Shown one piece after another: positions 35,268 to 60,204 of a DNA stretch of 64,000 nucleotides. The notes beneath the pieces were generated by a model. That model had not been told where the DNA came from and made no database searches. It was given only the letters and a program-made list of their open reading frames with translations. Both the position numbers and the translations under genes were made by a program. Origin of the DNA: Candidatus Poribacteria bacterium (lineage in GTDB: Bacteria > Poribacteria > WGA-4E > WGA-3G); assembly GCA_965242965.1 (NCBI GenBank), contig OZ251518.1, forward strand, positions 2,848,001-2,912,000. Direction: 5' to 3'. How positions within the stretch are numbered: position 1 is the stretch's first letter; each line of letters starts with the position of its first letter.

Positions 35268-35463
35268 ACCGTAGCGCGGGGGCCCTCGGATGCCATACGC
35301 GCATCCGAGAGGGTTTCCCCCGCGATCGCAGCATGGCGAGGGACAGGCCCTCGCCCTACGATGAAAGGGACATTTTTTTCATCGCAGCGCGGGGGCCCTC
35401 GGATGCCACACGCGCATCCGAGCGGGTTTCACCGAAACGTTGAGCGATTTAGGAAACACCCTC
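35268..35463. repeat. REP mosaic with right TIR
   Basis: GTAGCGCGGGGGCCCTCGGATGCC... units; ATTTAGGAAACACCCTC. Confidence 0.8.
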
Positions 35464-35507
35464 AGTTATTGACAACGTCAACAACAAATATACGTAGGAG
35501 AAACGCA

Positions 35508-36452
35508 TTGCGAACGACAAAAATTCCCGGCGTTAGCAAAGACATATCCCAACTGATTTTAGGAACGATGATGCTATCACCGGTGGCATACGCTCATAGC
35601 ACCGAACTGCTGGACGCATTCTTTGAGGCGGGCGGCAACGCGCTTGACACCGCACACGGCTACGGCGGCGGCACCAGCGAAATGTTAATCGGGCTCTGGA
35701 TGCGGCAACGTGGGAACCGCGAGAACGTCTTTCTCATTGATAAAGGCGGACATCCAAATGGACGCGTGCCACGCCCGCGCCTTTCACCGGAGGAGCTCAA
35801 AAGCGATTTGGATGAAAGTCTCATCCGCCTCCGCACCGATTACATCGATGTCTACATGCTCCATCGCGATGACCCGAGCATCCCTGTTAGCACGGTTATC
35901 GATTACCTGAATCACGAAATCGGTGCCGGGCGCATTCGCGCAATTTCGGCATCGAACTGGGAACCGGAACGCATCCTCGCCGCGAACGATTACGCAGCGG
36001 AAAACGGGTTAAGCGGGTTTGTCTCGTGTAGCAACAACATCAGCCTCGCCGTGCCGATGGAGCCGATGTGGGGCGGCTGCGTCTGCGTTGACGAAAAGGC
36101 GCGCGCATGGCACGAAGAAAGCCAATTCCCGCTGATGCCCTGGTCTTCGCAGGCGAGAGGATTCTTCAGCGGCGCGTTTACGCCTGAAAAACGCGACAAT
36201 CGCGACATGGTGCGAGTCTATTACAACGATGACAACTTTGAGCGGCTCGCCCGCGCAACAAAATTGGGAGAGGAACGAGGCTACTCTGCCATCCAGGTCT
36301 CGTTGGCTTATGCCGTTCAACTGCCATTCCCTATTTTTCCAATCGTCGGCCCGGCGAACTTGGAGGAGATGGCATCCTCGTTAGGGGCATTGTCGCTTGA
36401 ACTCTCGGCAGCGGATATGGCCTGGCTGAACCTTGAAACGGAGAAAAAATGA
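35508..36452 (+). CDS. Aldo/keto reductase
   Basis: TTG start after AGGAG; LILGT, DTAHGYG..SE, KGGHP, SL.RL.TDYID.Y.LHRDD, WSSQARG. Confidence 0.9.
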   Translation: MRTTKIPGVSKDISQLILGTMMLSPVAYAHSTELLDAFFEAGGNALDTAHGYGGGTSEMLIGLWMRQRGNRENVFLIDKGGHPNGRVPRPRLSPEELKSDLDESLIRLRTDYIDVYMLHRDDPSIPVSTVIDYLNHEIGAGRIRAISASNWEPERILAANDYAAENGLSGFVSCSNNISLAVPMEPMWGGCVCVDEKARAWHEESQFPLMPWSSQARGFFSGAFTPEKRDNRDMVRVYYNDDNFERLARATKLGEERGYSAIQVSLAYAVQLPFPIFPIVGPANLEEMASSLGALSLELSAADMAWLNLETEKK

Positions 36453-37507
36453 TGAACACACGTATCCTATTATTAGCACTCCTTTTTATGGCTATACAAC
36501 TGATTGTGCTTCCTTTAGGCTTATCGCAAGATAGCTGAGGCGCGTGAAGCAATCCCGCCATCCCGCAAGGCGGGAGGGATGAAGTCAGGTTGACTTCAGA
36601 GGAGACACAGAAATTTCACGCCGCCTTCAGCATAATGCGATGGTTCGACGCGCAAGGCGGACACCTTGAAACAGAGGGGATTTCCCCAGAGGGTAAGGTT
36701 ATCATCGTGCCTTTGCATCGGCACCATGTCACCTTAAACATTTTCCGCGTTGATGTTGGATTGAAATGCTACTTTAACTCCAACTGGATGCTGGAAGCGA
36801 ACGTCCCTTACGAAGTGAAAGCGCAGGAGGCGACAATCGAGGAACTCGCCGATTCTACGCCTGCCGAAATGGCGGCAATCGTGCGGAATGGTAATAATCA
36901 TCATCGAACCGAAACCTATACCGGGCTCAGGGACACGGATGTGCTGCTCGGGTATAACGCGCAAGGATTGCTGAAAGAGAATGATTTTCTCACGGCGCGC
37001 ATCGGCACAACGGTGCCACTCGGCAAAACTGAGGAAGACCCGTGGCAACTCGGAAAACAGGGGCTTGAGCATCTGCACATTCAATTCGGCACCGGCACCT
37101 TTAATCCCATCGCTGCTCTCTATTATCGCGTGCCGCTCTACGGAAATCTCGCCGCGAATGTGAGCTTGCGCGGGAAGTTGCCGTTCTATGAAAACAGCAA
37201 AACCTATCGCGGTTCAAGGGAACTCACCTATACGGCGGGGTTACACTACCGATTCACCGATTGGCTGTCGGTTCATGGCAGTTATCTGGGGCTTTATCAA
37301 ACCTACGCGTATTGGGCAGGTGAACGGGATATTAACACGGGACTCCATTTCAGCATGGCATCGTTCGGCACCTCTGTTGCAATGCCTTATGATGCCACGC
37401 TGTCCCTGACGATGATGTTGCCGCTCCAACAGGAGACGCTCTACGACGACAGCGATGCATTTGAATTCGGTCCGCTGGTTTCGTTAACGGTGCTTCATGC
37501 GTTCTAA
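36449..37507 (+). CDS. Candidate selenoprotein outer-membrane barrel with a U-G-A-U (UxxU) motif, 352 aa
   Basis: ATG overlaps the upstream stop (ATGA); signal peptide MMNTRILLLALLFMAIQLIVLPLGLSQDS; in-frame TGA at 36536 and 36545; frame continues into ORF 36590-37507; beta-strand pattern and terminal Phe. Confidence 0.75.
36552..36580 (+). promoter_or_regulatory. SECIS-like stem-loop
   Basis: ATCCC-GCCA-TCCCGC-AAG-GCGGGA-GGGAT; apical loop about 19 and 28 nt after the two UGAs; second hairpin TGAAGTCA-GGT-TGACTTCA follows. Confidence 0.6.
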
Positions 37508-37519
37508 ATTAGTGAGAGA

Positions 37520-38450
37520 GGAGCAGGATTTGGAGCAGGATAGGAGCAGGATTTTCAAGATTTTCAAGATTTCACAGGATTAGGGCTCTGGTGCGTCGGC
37601 GCGGTTGTGGCCTGCCACGGGGTATTCGATGCATCAGCATCTATAATCGTGGTAAATCGTGATAAGAGGGACGATCAGGAAAACCTGCAGAGGGACAATC
37701 AGGAAAACCTGATCGTCTTGACAGGCGTGACCGTCTTGACAGGCGTGACCGTGTAAATCCTGCTTCAGACGATTGGCATGGCGAGGGAAACCCTCTCGCA
37801 TGCGCGTGTGGCATGCGAGGGCCCTCGCCCTACGGTAAACGGCATGCTTTTTTTAACCGTAGCGCGGGGGCCTGTCCCCCGCGATCACACCCGCGAAAAA
37901 AACCTCTTCAGGTCCTTTAGGTCCTGCATGTCTATAGTATCCCCGACCTCAAAAAACGCTAAGGTCCTTTAGGTCCTTAATCTGCAGCACACGCAATGCA
38001 GCAGAAAAACATTAAGGTCCTAAAGGACCTTGAGGACTTGGAGGTCTGCGTATTCTACAGACATTAAGGTCCTACGGACCTTGAGGAGACTGTAGTTCGG
38101 GAGCGCCTGCTCCCGAAACGGGTCAAGAGCAGGCGCTCTTGACCTACAGAAGGGATGCGCGCACGCGTACCCTATGGCATGGCGAGGGACAGGCCCTCGC
38201 CCTACGGGCAGCGGGGCGTTTTTTTTCACCGCAGCGCGGGGGCCTGTCCCCCGCGATCGTTCGACCTACGCGAAAAACGCACGCCGACAAAGGCCGTTTC
38301 TCGTGCAGATCGCGGCATGGCGAGGGACAGGCCCTCGCCCTACGGGAACGAGGGAACGACCGAGGCATGGCGAGGGACAGGCCCTCGCCCTACGGTGAAA
38401 CGGGAGACGGCCTTGACAACCGCAGCGCGGAGGGCCCTCGCCCTACGGTA
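37520..38450. repeat. Long repeat mosaic (GCAGGATT/CAAGATTTT short repeats plus several REP classes)
   Basis: Short tandem units followed by AGGTCC, GTAGTTCGGGAGC and GGCGAGGG palindromes. Confidence 0.85.
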
Positions 38451-56412: not shown

Positions 56413-56484
56413 GCTGACGTGGCTCAATGGTAGAGCAAGTGATTTGTAATCACTAGGTTGGAGGTTCGATTCCTCTCGTCAGCT
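56413..56484 (+). tRNA. tRNA-Thr(TGT)
   Basis: Cloverleaf; AGTGA-TTTGTAA-TCACT. Confidence 0.95.
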
Positions 56485-56521
56485 TCTTCTAACGTAAGCG
56501 TCAAGGTTGATAACTAAATAC

Positions 56522-56603
56522 GGGGGCGTGCTTGAGTGGTCAAAAAGGGCAGACTGTAAATCTGTTGGCAATGCCTACGGTGGTTCAAATCCATCCGCCC
56601 CCA
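56522..56603 (+). tRNA. tRNA-Tyr(GTA)
   Basis: GCAGA-CTGTAAA-TCTGT; long variable arm. Confidence 0.95.
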
Positions 56604-56627
56604 TCGTTTTCTAGCAAGTGCATTTGC

Positions 56628-56700
56628 GCGGGAGTAGCTCAGCTGGTAGAGCATTGGCCTTCCAAGCCATGTGTCGCGGGTTCAAATCCCGTCTCCCGCT
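56628..56700 (+). tRNA. tRNA-Gly(TCC)
   Basis: TGGC-CTTCCAA-GCCA. Confidence 0.95.
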
Positions 56701-56720
56701 CATAGCCATTTTTCTTGTTT

Positions 56721-56796
<76 letters not shown>

Positions 56797-56851
56797 TTTA
56801 TCGGCACGTCGCATGCGTCGGCGTGCAACTTGTCCGAATAGGGTATCAATA

Positions 56852-57004
<153 letters not shown>

Positions 57005-57033
57005 CGCGTCCAAACCGAGACGAAACAGCGTGT

Positions 57034-57107
57034 AGGCCAGTAGCTCCAACGGCTAGAGCGTCGGTCTCCAAAACCGAATGTTGGGGGTTCGAATCCCTCC
57101 TGGCCTG
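57034..57107 (+). tRNA. tRNA-Trp(CCA)
   Basis: TCGGT-CTCCAAA-ACCGA; canonical position before secE. Confidence 0.95.
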
Positions 57108-58627: not shown

Positions 58628-59329
58628 ATGGCGAAAAAAGGGAAACGCTACCGTGGGCTGAAAGAGCAGGTAGATAGGCTTCAACTTTACACGGTTGATG
58701 AAGCTGTCTCGCTTGTGAAAAAAACGAGTGCAGCGAAGTTCGATGAAACCGTGGATTTGGCATCGCGCCTCGGCGTAGACGCGCGGAAGGCAGAAGAGAA
58801 TATCCGCGGCACCGTCGCGCTGCCGCACGGCACCGGAAAATCGGTGCGCGTCGTCGTCTTCGCGCAAGGCGATAAGGCACGCGAGGCAGAGGAAGCAGGC
58901 GCGGATTTCGTCGGCACAGACGAATTAGTGGATAAAATTGTGGATGGCTGGCTTGATTTCGATGCGACTATCGCCACGCCGGATTTGATGCGCGGCGTGA
59001 TGCCGAAACTCGGTAGAATTCTCGGGCCGCGCGGGCTAATGCCCAACGCAAAAGCTGGCACCGTCACTATGGATGTCGCCGAGACACTCCAGAGCATCAA
59101 AGCCGGGCAGATTGAATATCGGGTGGAACGTTCCTCCGGTATCGTTCATGTCCCCATCGGCAAAGTCTCGTTTGAAGAAGAGCGGTTGAAGGATAACCTC
59201 AACACCGTGATGGGTGCGCTCGTCAGCGCAAGGCCGTCCTCTGTCAAAGGCCGGTATATTCGGAGCGTTGCAATCTCCGCGACGATGGGTGTCGGTGTCC
59301 GCATCGATCCGCAGCAATTTGCATCATAA
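58628..59329 (+). CDS. rplA: 50S ribosomal protein L1
   Basis: [37 protein letters not shown]. Confidence 0.97.
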
Positions 59330-59409
59330 TCGTTCGCGTCGGGACGCGGGGTTTGAAACTGCGCATCCCGATGGCATAAATGTTTGATTTGACACGAAAA
59401 TAGAGAATA

Positions 59410-59540
59410 AAGTCGTAGAAAGTAGGTGCCGCTGGCTTAATTTCCTACCGAGGCTTGACAGGAATGGAAACCGAAGCGTGCTGCGCAGGCTGCACGCCCG
59501 GTCCGATTTCATTCCACGTGCGCTGAGCCTCCACCCGTCT
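59410..59540 (+). promoter_or_regulatory. L10 leader (r-protein autoregulatory RNA)
   Basis: GTCGTAGAAAGTAGG...TTAAT..CCTACCGAGGC in the rplA-rplJ spacer. Confidence 0.7.
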
Positions 59541-59637
59541 GGAGGCTTTTTGTTTGCAAGAATAGAGGGAGGGGTGCAAATCCCCCCTTGTCGCCGCGGT
59601 CTTCGGGCCGCGATACGGAATACGAAGGAGCTGACAC

Positions 59638-60204
59638 ATGCCGAATCAGGCGAACGTTCAGCAAGCAGAACAAATCCGCGAACTCTTTGAAAGCGCGGAT
59701 GTGATTCTGCTCACCGACTTTCAAGGACTAAGCGTCGCAGAAACGAACGAACTTCGTAACAGTTTACGCGCCGCCGATGTCCAATATAAAGTCTGTAAAA
59801 ACACGTTAATCAACGTTGTCGCGCAAGAGAGAGGCATTGACGGGTTAGCACCTTATCTCAAAGGCAACACGGCACTTGCGGCAAGCAGTGACCCGGCCGC
59901 ATCGGCGAAGGCACTTCTCGCTTTCTGTGAAGAACACGAAAATCTCACGATTAAGGGTGGTATCCTTGGCACGCGAGTCATCGACGCAGTCGGCGTTGAG
60001 GCTCTCAAGGATATGCCGTCCCGCGACGTGATGATTGCACGAGCCATCGGATGCATAGGTGCCCCGCTCACCGGACTCGCCCAGGTCTTGAACCAAGGTT
60101 CGCCTGTGAAGGGGATGGTGAATGTTCTCAGTGGAACGATACGCCAAGTGACCTCGGTGTTAACCCAGGTTGCCGAGCAAAAGAGAGAGGCTGAAAACGC
60201 CTAA
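59638..60204 (+). CDS. rplJ: 50S ribosomal protein L10
   Basis: DFQGLSV.E..ELR..LR, V.KNTL, IKGG, position in operon. Confidence 0.95.

Follow-up and report, generated by a model that had tools for sequence, protein, structure and literature searches.

A candidate outer-membrane beta-barrel protein with two closely spaced selenocysteines in Poribacteria and their relatives

Is the open reading frame that begins with a TTG codon at position 36590 a complete gene, or the remainder of a longer gene that starts upstream of two in-frame TGA codons? The window in which this question arises is a stretch of 64,000 nucleotides from a Candidatus Poribacteria bacterium (GenBank assembly GCA_965242965.1, contig OZ251518.1, positions 2,848,001 to 2,912,000 of the forward strand). 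An initial annotation proposed that the longer frame encodes an exported metal or redox channel in which both TGAs, spaced like the cysteines of a CxxC motif, are read as selenocysteine (Sec). Comparison of sequences indicates that positions 36449-37507 of the window probably encode a genuine outer-membrane protein with two Sec residues (probability roughly 0.8). The gene start comprises the following features.

35361..36452, + strand: aldo/keto reductase gene (Pfam PF00248, E 6e-51), whose TGA stop shares bases with the ATG of the barrel gene (ATGA)
36440..36443, + strand: GGAG, Shine-Dalgarno-like, 5 nt before the ATG, read from the sequence
36449..37507, + strand: predicted coding sequence of the barrel precursor, a selenoprotein of 352 aa followed by TAA if both TGAs specify Sec, from the translation and from full-length matches with two TGAs in relatives
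36449..36526, + strand: candidate signal peptide, residues 1-26, cleaved probably after G-L-S, judged by eye

The upstream ATG at 36449 is present as described, overlapping the end of the reductase frame at 36452, and is in frame with the listed TTG frame (36590-37507). The product of the latter begins LTSEETQKF and has no signal peptide. The ATG supplies one, as had been noticed: residues 1-26, MMNTRILLLALLFMAIQLIVLPLGLS, resemble a signal peptide by eye, and the translated precursor then continues through Q-D-S-U-G-A-U-S-N-P into a 12-stranded barrel. A TTG start is disfavored, because the barrel would then lack the signal peptide that it needs for export to the outer membrane. The arrangement recurs in relatives. 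Of 30 same-family loci (L020-L049), 29 have a reductase homologue upstream in the same orientation, and a hydrophobic N-terminus precedes the motif in frame in 51/51 relatives.

The two TGAs are conserved in position and spacing. They lie within AGC-TGA-GGC-GCG-TGA-AGC at 36533-36550, with the exact CxxC spacing that had been pointed out.

36536..36538, + strand: UGA1, predicted Sec30, first position of the [U/C]xxU motif; TGA in 65 and TGT/TGC in 55 of 120 distinct genes
36545..36547, + strand: UGA2, predicted Sec33, second motif position; TGA in 100 and TGC/TGT in 20 (all in the CxxC group) of 120 distinct genes

After deduplication, the 120 distinct genes comprise 65 UxxU, 35 CxxU, 20 CxxC and no UxxC forms. 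The 100 Sec forms have an in-frame UGA at the same codon, preceded by a signal peptide and followed by the barrel in one continuous frame. Most variation in the codons between the UGAs is at the third base. Of the 100 Sec forms, 58 have Gly (GGC/GGT/GGG/GGA) and 39 have Pro (CCN) at the first of these codons, and 99 have Ala (GCN) at the second. All UxxU relatives examined have TGA at these two codons, which upholds the suspicion that the pair is not due to chance. On the family tree, changes between Cys and Sec occurred at least five times at the first position and once at the second.

The gene is widespread within the phylum. A phylum-wide search gave a match in 141/176 genomes, with one to three TGAs inside each full-length match among the matches listed. 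By family, matches were found in 111/111 sampled genomes of the family to which the window's genome belongs (f1), 11/11 of f2, 11/29 of f3, 7/7 of f4 and 0/17 of seven others. Twenty-one more distant genomes yielded 21 full-length matches, of which 17 contain two TGAs and four contain one, at identities down to 35%. In 51/51 loci, the signal peptide is followed by Q-[ED]-S-[U/C]-x-A-U-S-N-P; fourteen further loci divide into eight CPAU and six UxxU forms. Independently assembled contigs from three sequencing runs, belonging to three studies, span 36520-36563; none of the differences listed for them falls on either TGA, and one is a synonymous variant (36541 C>G) between the two. Both places in which the initial annotation had suggested looking for the TGAs, namely relatives and reads (here the reads-derived contigs of the three studies), thus contain them.

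Cysteine takes the place of Sec in part of the family. Homologues with Cys or TGA at both positions had been sought, and they exist: besides the 20 CxxC and 35 CxxU genes, 15 of the 17 retrieved database homologues that reach the N-terminus have CxxCxNP, and 14 of these 15 entered the alignment. Among Bacteroidota loci, 21/22 read CPAC (C-P-A-C-S-N-P) and one has ambiguous bases, while loci from Acidobacteriota, Thermoanaerobaculia and unclassified bacteria are UxAU in 9/9 cases. The CxxC loci of the related-loci set are all from Bacteroidota. The two remaining database homologues (P0164 and P0166) have W at the TGA sites. We read this as probably TGA translated as Trp by a gene caller or under another code table.

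These patterns bear on whether the gene is intact. That it is a pseudogene, or that the TTG at 36590 is the true start and the TGAs are nonsense mutations or real stops, is extremely unlikely. Public gene calls for the best 120 of 508 homologues do begin after the TGAs and cover 82-88% of the query, so that the signal peptide and the active motif are missing from them. Nevertheless, the TGAs, the frame, the signal peptide and the motif are kept in 100 distinct Sec-form genes from at least two phyla, change between the TGAs is mostly synonymous, and the corresponding columns contain Cys in other homologues. To the extent that comparison can decide, a pseudogene or a TTG start is refuted.

The genome encodes the machinery for Sec insertion. 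Matches to selA (577 bits), selB (331 bits), selD (358 bits) and tRNA-Sec (selC, 78 bits) all exceed curated cut-offs; tRNA-Sec adjoins selB, and selD itself contains one in-frame TGA. The reductase gene ends in TGA, and TGA is therefore an ordinary stop in this genome. ARAGORN predicts 49 tRNAs, with the anticodon UCA in tRNA-Sec alone. It is thus very improbable that the UGAs are decoded as another amino acid, whether as Cys by a tRNA-ReC-type tRNA with SelB or as Trp or Gly by an altered code: a single tRNA-Sec scores above the cut-off and has the only UCA anticodon, the overlapping reductase gene terminates with TGA, and the set of selA, selB and selD is complete. Such decoding would fit the W in two database entries, and tRNA-ReC is described as commoner in genomes with UXXU hydrogenases (excerpt of PMC13582414). 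We infer that both TGAs specify Sec, a reading on which the machinery, the Cys and TGA homologues, the relatives and the independent assemblies all agree.

Two hairpins follow the UGAs, as had been noticed.

36552..36580, + strand: hairpin 1, SECIS candidate; outer stem ATCCC/GGGAT, inner stem TCCCGC/GCGGGA, loop AAG at 36567-69
36581..36597, + strand: hairpin 2, GAAGTCA-GGT-TGACTTC; 95.3% of cells paired across 28 relatives, three pairs changed on both sides

The predicted folding energy of the 81-nt stretch is -29.7 kcal/mol, compared with -21.4 +/- 2.9 kcal/mol for shuffled sequences (z = -2.86; 1 of 200 shuffles was as good). Cys forms, too, show some folding here, with a mean energy of -10.5 kcal/mol compared with -15.2 in UxxU and -12.3 in CxxU forms. 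Hairpin 1 has two competing registers, 77.7% and 85.2% paired; the latter is the inner register, with three pairs changed on both sides across the 28 relatives. RNAalifold on these relatives did not recover hairpin 1 as a consensus, returning only hairpin 2 and some weak base pairs near the UGAs. No SECIS model of Rfam matched at gathering level anywhere in the window, and a relaxed threshold of E <= 10 gave only two chance-level matches in 36480-36680. As a separate observation, hairpin 2 covaries as a second element beside the SECIS candidate.

The position of hairpin 1 is consistent with that in Sec genes of the same genome. Its loop is 20-22 nt downstream of UGA2 and 29-31 nt downstream of UGA1; the distance from UGA to loop is 18-20 nt in selD and 24-26 nt in the HMA genes. 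The comparison suggested at the outset therefore places the UGA2 distance in the range of selD and the HMA genes, although the UGA1 distance exceeds that in the three other Sec genes examined. The expected loop G is lacking: bacterial SECIS elements typically have G at loop position 1 or 2 (PMC13582414, in the portion available), and the loop here is AAG, with most relatives having GAG, GUA or GUG. That one SECIS serves both UGAs is plausible, as they are only 6 nt apart and a CxxU gene (L053) has the same sequence as a UxxU gene (L054) over the 63 nt compared downstream. A single downstream SECIS has already been suggested for the paired UGAs of UxxU proteins (PMC13582414, same portion).

The remainder of the protein is predicted to form a barrel with conserved histidines. 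The initial annotation had recognized a beta-barrel with terminal Phe and His clusters; HRHH, NNHHR, HLH and a terminal HAF are all present, and the fold has been modeled.

36614..37504, + strand: predicted 12-stranded beta-barrel domain, residues 56-352, with terminal Phe, from AlphaFold2 models and structural matches
36713..36724, + strand: HRHH, residues 89-92; H92 is the only invariant column of a 68-sequence alignment
36893..36907, + strand: NNHHR, residues 149-153; H151, H152 and R153 occur in at least 90% of the wide family
37070..37102, + strand: HLHIQFGTGTF, with HLH at residues 208-210; H208 and H210 occur in at least 90% of sequences, and the stretch supplied the pattern for the collection scan of relatives

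Six His (H72, H92, H151, H152, H208 and H210) are conserved across the wide family. AlphaFold2 models of the barrel have pLDDT values of 76.7 and 91.5, while the N-terminal segment (mature residues 1-29) has a pLDDT of about 53-57 and is unplaced in both runs. The closest structures are the COG4313 channel 4rl8 (Z 24.4, rmsd 2.6 A, 252 residues aligned) and FapF (5o65, Z 23.4), and the next match has a Z of 18.9. Profile searches were less informative. The sole Pfam match of the barrel protein was PF13505 (17.5 bits versus a cut-off of 28.7), with the PF13557 threshold not reached; relative P0247 scored 18.3 bits against PF13557 (cut-off 22), and a few relatives or related clusters have a precomputed PF13557 match. 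No NCBIfam model matched the barrel protein at E <= 1, including NF041115, NF041027 and NF049945.

This fold raises the possibility of an uptake channel for hydrophobic molecules, like COG4313, in which the CxxC or UxxU pair only staples or gates an N-terminal plug. The COG4313 channel Pput2725 (4rl8) and FapF (5o65) share with the barrel protein its 12 strands and similar size. The COG4313 channel is the closest fold (Z 24.4), related clusters carry PF13557, and a translationally coupled aldo/keto reductase gene lies upstream in 29/30 loci of the family. We nevertheless regard such a channel as unlikely. If the pair were purely structural, neither the recruitment of Sec at two positions nor the retention of an HMA-thioredoxin partner across phyla would be expected. 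Furthermore, in the part of the COG4313 paper available (PMC4493636), the six conserved His are not among the conserved residues noted, and the N-terminal CxxC/UxxU-x-N-P motif and the conserved His cluster of the barrel family go unmentioned. COG4313 and FapF proteins are linked to hydrophobic substrates or amyloid export rather than to metal genes.

Gene neighborhoods in other phyla point to metal handling. In 20/22 Bacteroidota and 8/9 Acidobacteriota-group loci (28/31), the gene immediately upstream on the same strand encodes a thioredoxin domain. By BLAST, an HMA part occurs in the same open reading frame as that thioredoxin in 22/28 cases; by Pfam, HMA and thioredoxin were found together in 6/6 adjacent genes submitted, one of which (L120) is outside the BLAST 22. 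MerA (TIGR02053, 501 bits, cut-off 454) is encoded within 2.5 kb in 4/22 Bacteroidota loci. An ArsR/SmtB metalloregulator represents a neighbor cluster seen in five loci, a heavy-metal P-type ATPase (TIGR01525, 582 bits) represents one seen in three, and a cation-diffusion-facilitator gene lies beside the barrel gene in four family f3 loci. Fusions also occur. The barrel is joined to HMA in P0140, and to a His-rich linker and thioredoxin in P0219 and P0223, as well as in P0245 and P0263 by sequence. The database sequences of the thioredoxin-fused homologues begin inside strand 1, and a metagenome scan for their DNA returned only generic thioredoxins, aligned to query residues of about 326-488.

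The genome under study has a different neighborhood. The neighbors of the barrel gene are the reductase and a solute-binding protein, with no metal genes. A genome-wide search found no MerA above the cut-off (best 372 bits versus 454) and no HMA-thioredoxin homologue, with sub-threshold or generic thioredoxin matches only. The proposal of a metal or redox channel gains support from context and fusions in relatives; that this genome has no MerA above the cut-off and no HMA-thioredoxin homologue speaks against a metal function here, and the role is still one that we infer. For the barrel protein itself, the chances that it handles metal appear about evenly balanced.

The same partners could indicate a redox relay rather than a metal site. 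In that case, thioredoxin-type partners in the periplasm would donate reducing equivalents to a diselenide/selenol couple on the N-terminal segment, which would transfer them through or at the barrel to a surface or periplasmic substrate (peroxide, disulfide or chalcogen oxyanion). Thioredoxin is the most constant partner domain, adjacent in 28/31 loci and fused in P0219 and P0223, and most known UxxC/CxxU selenoproteins are redox proteins (PMC13188914, partial text). On the other hand, HMA shares a reading frame with the partner thioredoxin (22/28 by BLAST, 6/6 by Pfam), P0140 is fused to HMA alone, the His-rich linkers and the conserved His cluster point to metal, and the MerA, ArsR and P1B-ATPase neighbors are metal genes. 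A relay to the exclusion of metal thus seems rather unlikely. Nevertheless, the metal and redox readings are compatible, as thioredoxin could simply keep a metal site reduced.

The most likely function would be that of a soft-metal-binding or redox-active diselenol on the N-terminal segment of the barrel. Translation would start at the ATG that overlaps the reductase stop, produce the signal peptide, and read UGA 36536 and UGA 36545 as Sec. Decoding by SelB and tRNA-Sec would be directed by the hairpin or hairpins that start 5 nt after the second UGA, and translation would then run into the 12-stranded COG4313/FapF-type barrel. As the mature protein is predicted to begin Q-D-S-U-G-A-U-S-N-P, the selenols would lie on a segment of about 29 residues before the first strand. 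In the COG4313 structure, the segment before strand 1 occludes the lumen (PMC4493636, partial text). It enters this closest solved barrel from the periplasmic side and folds inside; by analogy, the pair may be placed likewise. The [U/C]xxU pair could bind soft metals such as Hg(II) or Cu(I), be redox-active, or both, in cooperation with the conserved His cluster of the barrel. In other phyla, metal or electrons would be exchanged with the periplasmic HMA and thioredoxin domains.

We tentatively suggest, at somewhat less than even odds, that the family is an overlooked outer-membrane part of soft-metal (mercury-type) handling. A tethered dithiol or diselenol would take Hg(II)- or Cu(I)-like ions in a His-lined lumen and exchange them with HMA-thioredoxin proteins of the periplasm. 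In Poribacteria and Acidobacteriota, Sec would have replaced both ligands as an upgrade, a single element downstream directing the reading of two UGAs 6 nt apart. It is the mercury- and metal-resistance genes around the Cys forms that point to such an outer-membrane step. MerP/MerT, a paired-Cys Hg(II) relay, likewise has a Cys pair that could hand over a soft metal, although no sequence relation to it was found. The PcoB copper channel is also an outer-membrane barrel, but is a far weaker fold match (Z 13.0), again with no sequence relation found. The consulted part of a survey of mer genes (PMC8261052) mentions no outer-membrane barrel among them.

UxxU motifs are indeed rare, as had been stated, though several UxxU families have already been predicted in print (PMC13188914 and PMC13582414, partial texts). 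These include the NF041115 metal-binding (seleno)protein, a Prx-like oxidoreductase, an FmdB-family protein and the UXXU group 4 [NiFeSe] hydrogenases. As in the barrel family, two Sec replace the Cys pair of a CxxC motif, the UGAs are 6 nt apart, and the proteins are predictions from sequence alone. Their folds are unrelated and, except for the hydrogenases, they are small and soluble, whereas the barrel family belongs to the outer membrane and has its motif at the N-terminus of the mature protein. Sec has also been predicted in other beta-barrels of the outer membrane, namely a GSU2204/MtrB-PioB-family barrel (NF041027) and an FCYXU-type TonB-dependent receptor (NF049945) (PMC13188914, partial text); these are different barrel families with a single Sec each, while the present family has two. 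A 2026 inventory lists 119 selenoprotein families, the barrel family not among them. No description of it was found in the literature on Poribacteria or on UxxU, outer-membrane or sponge-symbiont selenoproteins, although supplementary tables of selenoproteomes may list it. It would thus add a widespread two-Sec family to the short list of predicted UxxU proteins. Its probably misannotated start matters, given its presence in all sampled genomes of the window's family and in Acidobacteriota. The CxxC, CxxU and UxxU forms provide a natural variant series for asking how two adjacent UGAs are decoded.

Other exported proteins of this genome appear to use Sec in a metal-binding context. GMTUGGC and GMTUGAC occur in a secreted protein with five HMA domains, and GMTUGAC occurs in another protein; from their sequences, the exported HMA domains are predicted to use Sec in GMTUxxC metal-binding motifs. 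Together with the barrel family, these HMA proteins suggest that these sponge-associated bacteria use selenium for extracytoplasmic metal ligation.

The barrel protein (P0001) constitutes a new family of predicted bacterial selenoproteins, for which the comparative signal is unusually clear. Its gene is longer than listed and carries two in-frame TGA codons, read as selenocysteine (Sec):

36449 (+): ATG of the full barrel gene, 141 nt 5' of the listed TTG start
36536-38 (+): TGA1, in-frame, read as Sec
36545-47 (+): TGA2, in-frame, read as Sec
36552-36580 (+): hairpin 1, ATCCC/GGGAT around TCCCGC-AAG-GCGGGA
36581-36597 (+): hairpin 2, next after hairpin 1
36590-37507 (+): listed ORF, TTG start, 305 aa, begins LTSEETQKF

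The listed ORF lacks a signal peptide. The upstream ATG, preceded at 5 nt by GGAG, overlaps the TGA stop of the aldo/keto-reductase gene (ATGA); as TGA ends that gene, the standard code applies. With TGA translated as Sec, the frame stays open for 352 codons and reads MMNTRILLLALLFMAIQLIVLPLGLS / QDS-U-GA-U-SNPAIPQGGRDEVRLTSEE..., ending ...VLHAF. The initial annotation had described the missing signal peptide, the ATG, the ATGA overlap, both TGAs and two hairpins; all are present in the sequence, and the observation is confirmed in every detail.

Both TGAs are conserved among relatives. In the public protein database, 508 homologues were found; the best 120 cover just 82-88% of the query, indicating that gene callers began 3' of the TGAs; a source name is given for two of these 120, both Candidatus Poribacteria. 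Genomes were searched directly with read-through of stops, and 141 of 176 genomes from the phylum gave a match: 111/111 in the window's own family, 11/11, 11/29 and 7/7 in three others (f2, f3 and f4), and 0/17 in the remaining seven. Every full-length match among the rows listed contains 1-3 TGAs. Twenty-one more distant genomes yielded 21 full-length rows at 35-51% identity, with two TGAs (17) or one (4), and seven further rows that are fragments or weak matches.

In all 51 loci with extracted N-termini, a hydrophobic signal peptide is followed in frame by Q-[ED]-S-[U/C]-x-A-U-S-N-P-x-[IF]-P. In one genus, most genomes have an additional gene copy with C-P-A-U (8/14 further loci; the other six are UxxU). 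After removal of duplicates, the 120 distinct genes comprise 65 UxxU, 35 CxxU, 20 CxxC and no UxxC forms. The two codons between the motif positions vary mostly at the third base across the 100 Sec forms, the hallmark of sequence that is translated: Gly GGN in 58 and Pro CCN in 39 at the first codon, Ala GCN in 99 at the second. The TGAs are also kept in independent assemblies, since contigs of three runs from three studies span the motif and none of the differences listed falls at either TGA; a synonymous variant (36541 C>G) lies between them.

Two loci in relatives depart from this pattern. L091 (G119:C5:4100-5764) carries one further in-frame TGA, at a codon that is Trp in all other orthologues (MRWFD -> MRUFD), probably a nonsense change or sequencing error rather than a third Sec. 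In genome G039 the gene lies in three pieces in different frames (L069, L073 and L077; G039:C56:9087-10115), with both TGAs in the first, and is a frameshifted copy or assembly error.

Other homologues carry Cys at the TGA positions. A profile run against 1.8 billion representatives produced 494 matches. Among 17 fetched homologues reaching the N-terminus, 15 have C-x-x-C-x-N-P right behind the signal peptide (14 of these 15 were included in the alignment), as the Sec reading had anticipated. The other two, P0164 and P0166, have Trp at TGA sites in the public database (DSWGAWSNP, ACSLWSNP), which looks like the product of a TGA=Trp translation table. A scan of species-representative genomes found 80 loci: C-P-A-C-S-N-P in 21 of 22 from Bacteroidota (one ambiguous), U-[PA]-A-U in 9/9 from Acidobacteriota, Thermoanaerobaculia or unclassified bacteria, and 18 UxxU and 31 CxxU among 49 from Poribacteria. 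On a quick FastTree run of barrel domains, motif excluded, the second position changes between Cys and Sec once and the first at least five times, long branches making these counts approximate. The database sequences of P0235 and thioredoxin-fused P0219, P0223, P0245 and P0263 begin right behind the motif (MNPNLP...) or within strand 1, and some use non-ATG starts; these calls, too, may have been cut short by in-frame UGAs further upstream.

The genome encodes a complete Sec machinery, with selB (331 bits), selA (577), selD (358) and tRNA-Sec (78 bits) all over curated cut-offs. Of its 49 tRNAs (ARAGORN), only tRNA-Sec has anticodon UCA. Relevant loci of the genome (G000:C1) are:

58854-59813: selD, also a selenoprotein gene, with one in-frame TGA (KCAGU motif)
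179173-181207: selB and the directly adjoining tRNA-Sec gene
1192461-1193600 (-): secreted protein, five HMA domains in tandem, outside the window
4287774-4287950: another protein with GMTUGAC

The five-HMA protein has GMTUGGC first, GMTUGAC second and GMTCEAC in the last three. These further predicted Sec codons sit in classical soft-metal motifs of HMA genes.

The 81-nt stretch with both hairpins folds at -29.7 kcal/mol (z = -2.86; 1/200 shuffles as good). The loop of hairpin 1, the SECIS candidate, lies 20-22 nt after UGA2 and 29-31 nt after UGA1. Elsewhere in this genome, the loop of the selD hairpin (GGG) follows its UGA by 18-20 nt, and hairpins common to both HMA loci (GUGCA-GGA/GGG-UGCAC) have loops 24-26 nt after UGA. 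A leading G is reported for bacterial SECIS loops (PMC13582414, in part); that of hairpin 1 is AAG here, without it, and GAG, GUA or GUG in most relatives. Across 28 relatives, hairpin 1 is 85.2% paired in its inner register and 77.7% in an alternative outer one, each with three pairs in which both partners change. Support is stronger for hairpin 2 (95.3% paired, three such pairs), the only one that RNAalifold recovered from the relatives' alignment. Sec forms fold more strongly than CxxC in the 42 nt 3' of the second codon, by a modest gap (mean -15.2 kcal/mol for UxxU, n=26; -12.3 for CxxU, n=26; -10.5 for CxxC, n=20). The proposal that one SECIS serves both UGAs fits their 6-nt spacing and the identity of a CxxU and a UxxU locus (L053, L054) over the 63 nt printed 3' of the motif; a shared downstream element would be consistent with both, which are not proof.

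The mature protein is modelled as a 12-stranded barrel (pLDDT 91.5, pTM 0.87; 68-sequence alignment) with helices within two long loops and pLDDT ~55 over the first 29 residues. Structure comparison ranks Pput2725, a COG4313 channel, first (Z 24.4, rmsd 2.6 A over 252 aligned residues) and FapF second (Z 23.4), in agreement with Foldseek; autotransporter barrels (Z <=18.9) and PcoB (Z 13.0) rank lower. Six His are conserved in the wide family (H72, H92, H151, H152, H208, H210), H92 being the sole invariant column. In Pput2725, residues before strand 1 fold into the lumen, entering at the periplasmic end (PMC4493636, in part).

Gene context in relatives points to metal or redox chemistry. A thioredoxin-domain gene lies directly upstream on the same strand in 28/31 Bacteroidota and Acidobacteriota-group loci, and in 22/28 that ORF also has an HMA part (BLAST); Pfam confirmed both domains in 6/6 genes submitted. 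MerA (TIGR02053, 501 bits vs cut-off 454) occurs within 2.5 kb in 4/22 Bacteroidota loci, an ArsR/SmtB metalloregulator represents a neighbour cluster found in five loci, and a heavy-metal P-type ATPase is one member of a cluster found in three. C-terminal fusions add an HMA domain (P0140) or a His-rich linker and thioredoxin (P0219, P0223). Both ends of an even-stranded barrel are periplasmic, which would bring these partner domains next to the N-terminal pair. The most likely function of the [U/C]xxU pair is soft-metal binding and/or selenol-diselenide cycling, and HMA and thioredoxin domains, where existing, would service it. The suggested metal or redox channel draws on relatives, since nothing within the window points to metals: in the window's own family, the reductase gene is upstream in 29/30 loci and a family-5 solute-binding protein gene downstream in 26/30, beside unrelated genes. 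Neither MerA above cut-off nor an HMA-thioredoxin partner was found in the genome, so the Poribacteria role may differ from classical mercury resistance. The proposed connection between the family and outer-membrane metal handling is testable.

UxxU selenoproteins were predicted earlier in the Prx-like, NF041115 and FmdB families and in group 4 [NiFeSe] hydrogenases, one from Poribacteria, as were two outer-membrane selenoprotein families (PMC13188914, PMC13582414, both in part). None, as described in those parts, matches P0001, nor does any NCBIfam model, and the literature searched, supplementary tables lying outside that search, yielded no description of the barrel family; it was therefore filed as new.

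Just 3' of the gene, GGAGCAGGAT-type short repeats occupy 37532-37600. Summed contig depth there in sequencing run X1 is 23949, vs ~275-350 across most of the barrel gene, and many loose ends occur, indicating a high-copy repeat in the samples. The window also holds:

56413-57107: cluster of five tRNA genes
59395-59561: ribosomal protein L10 leader
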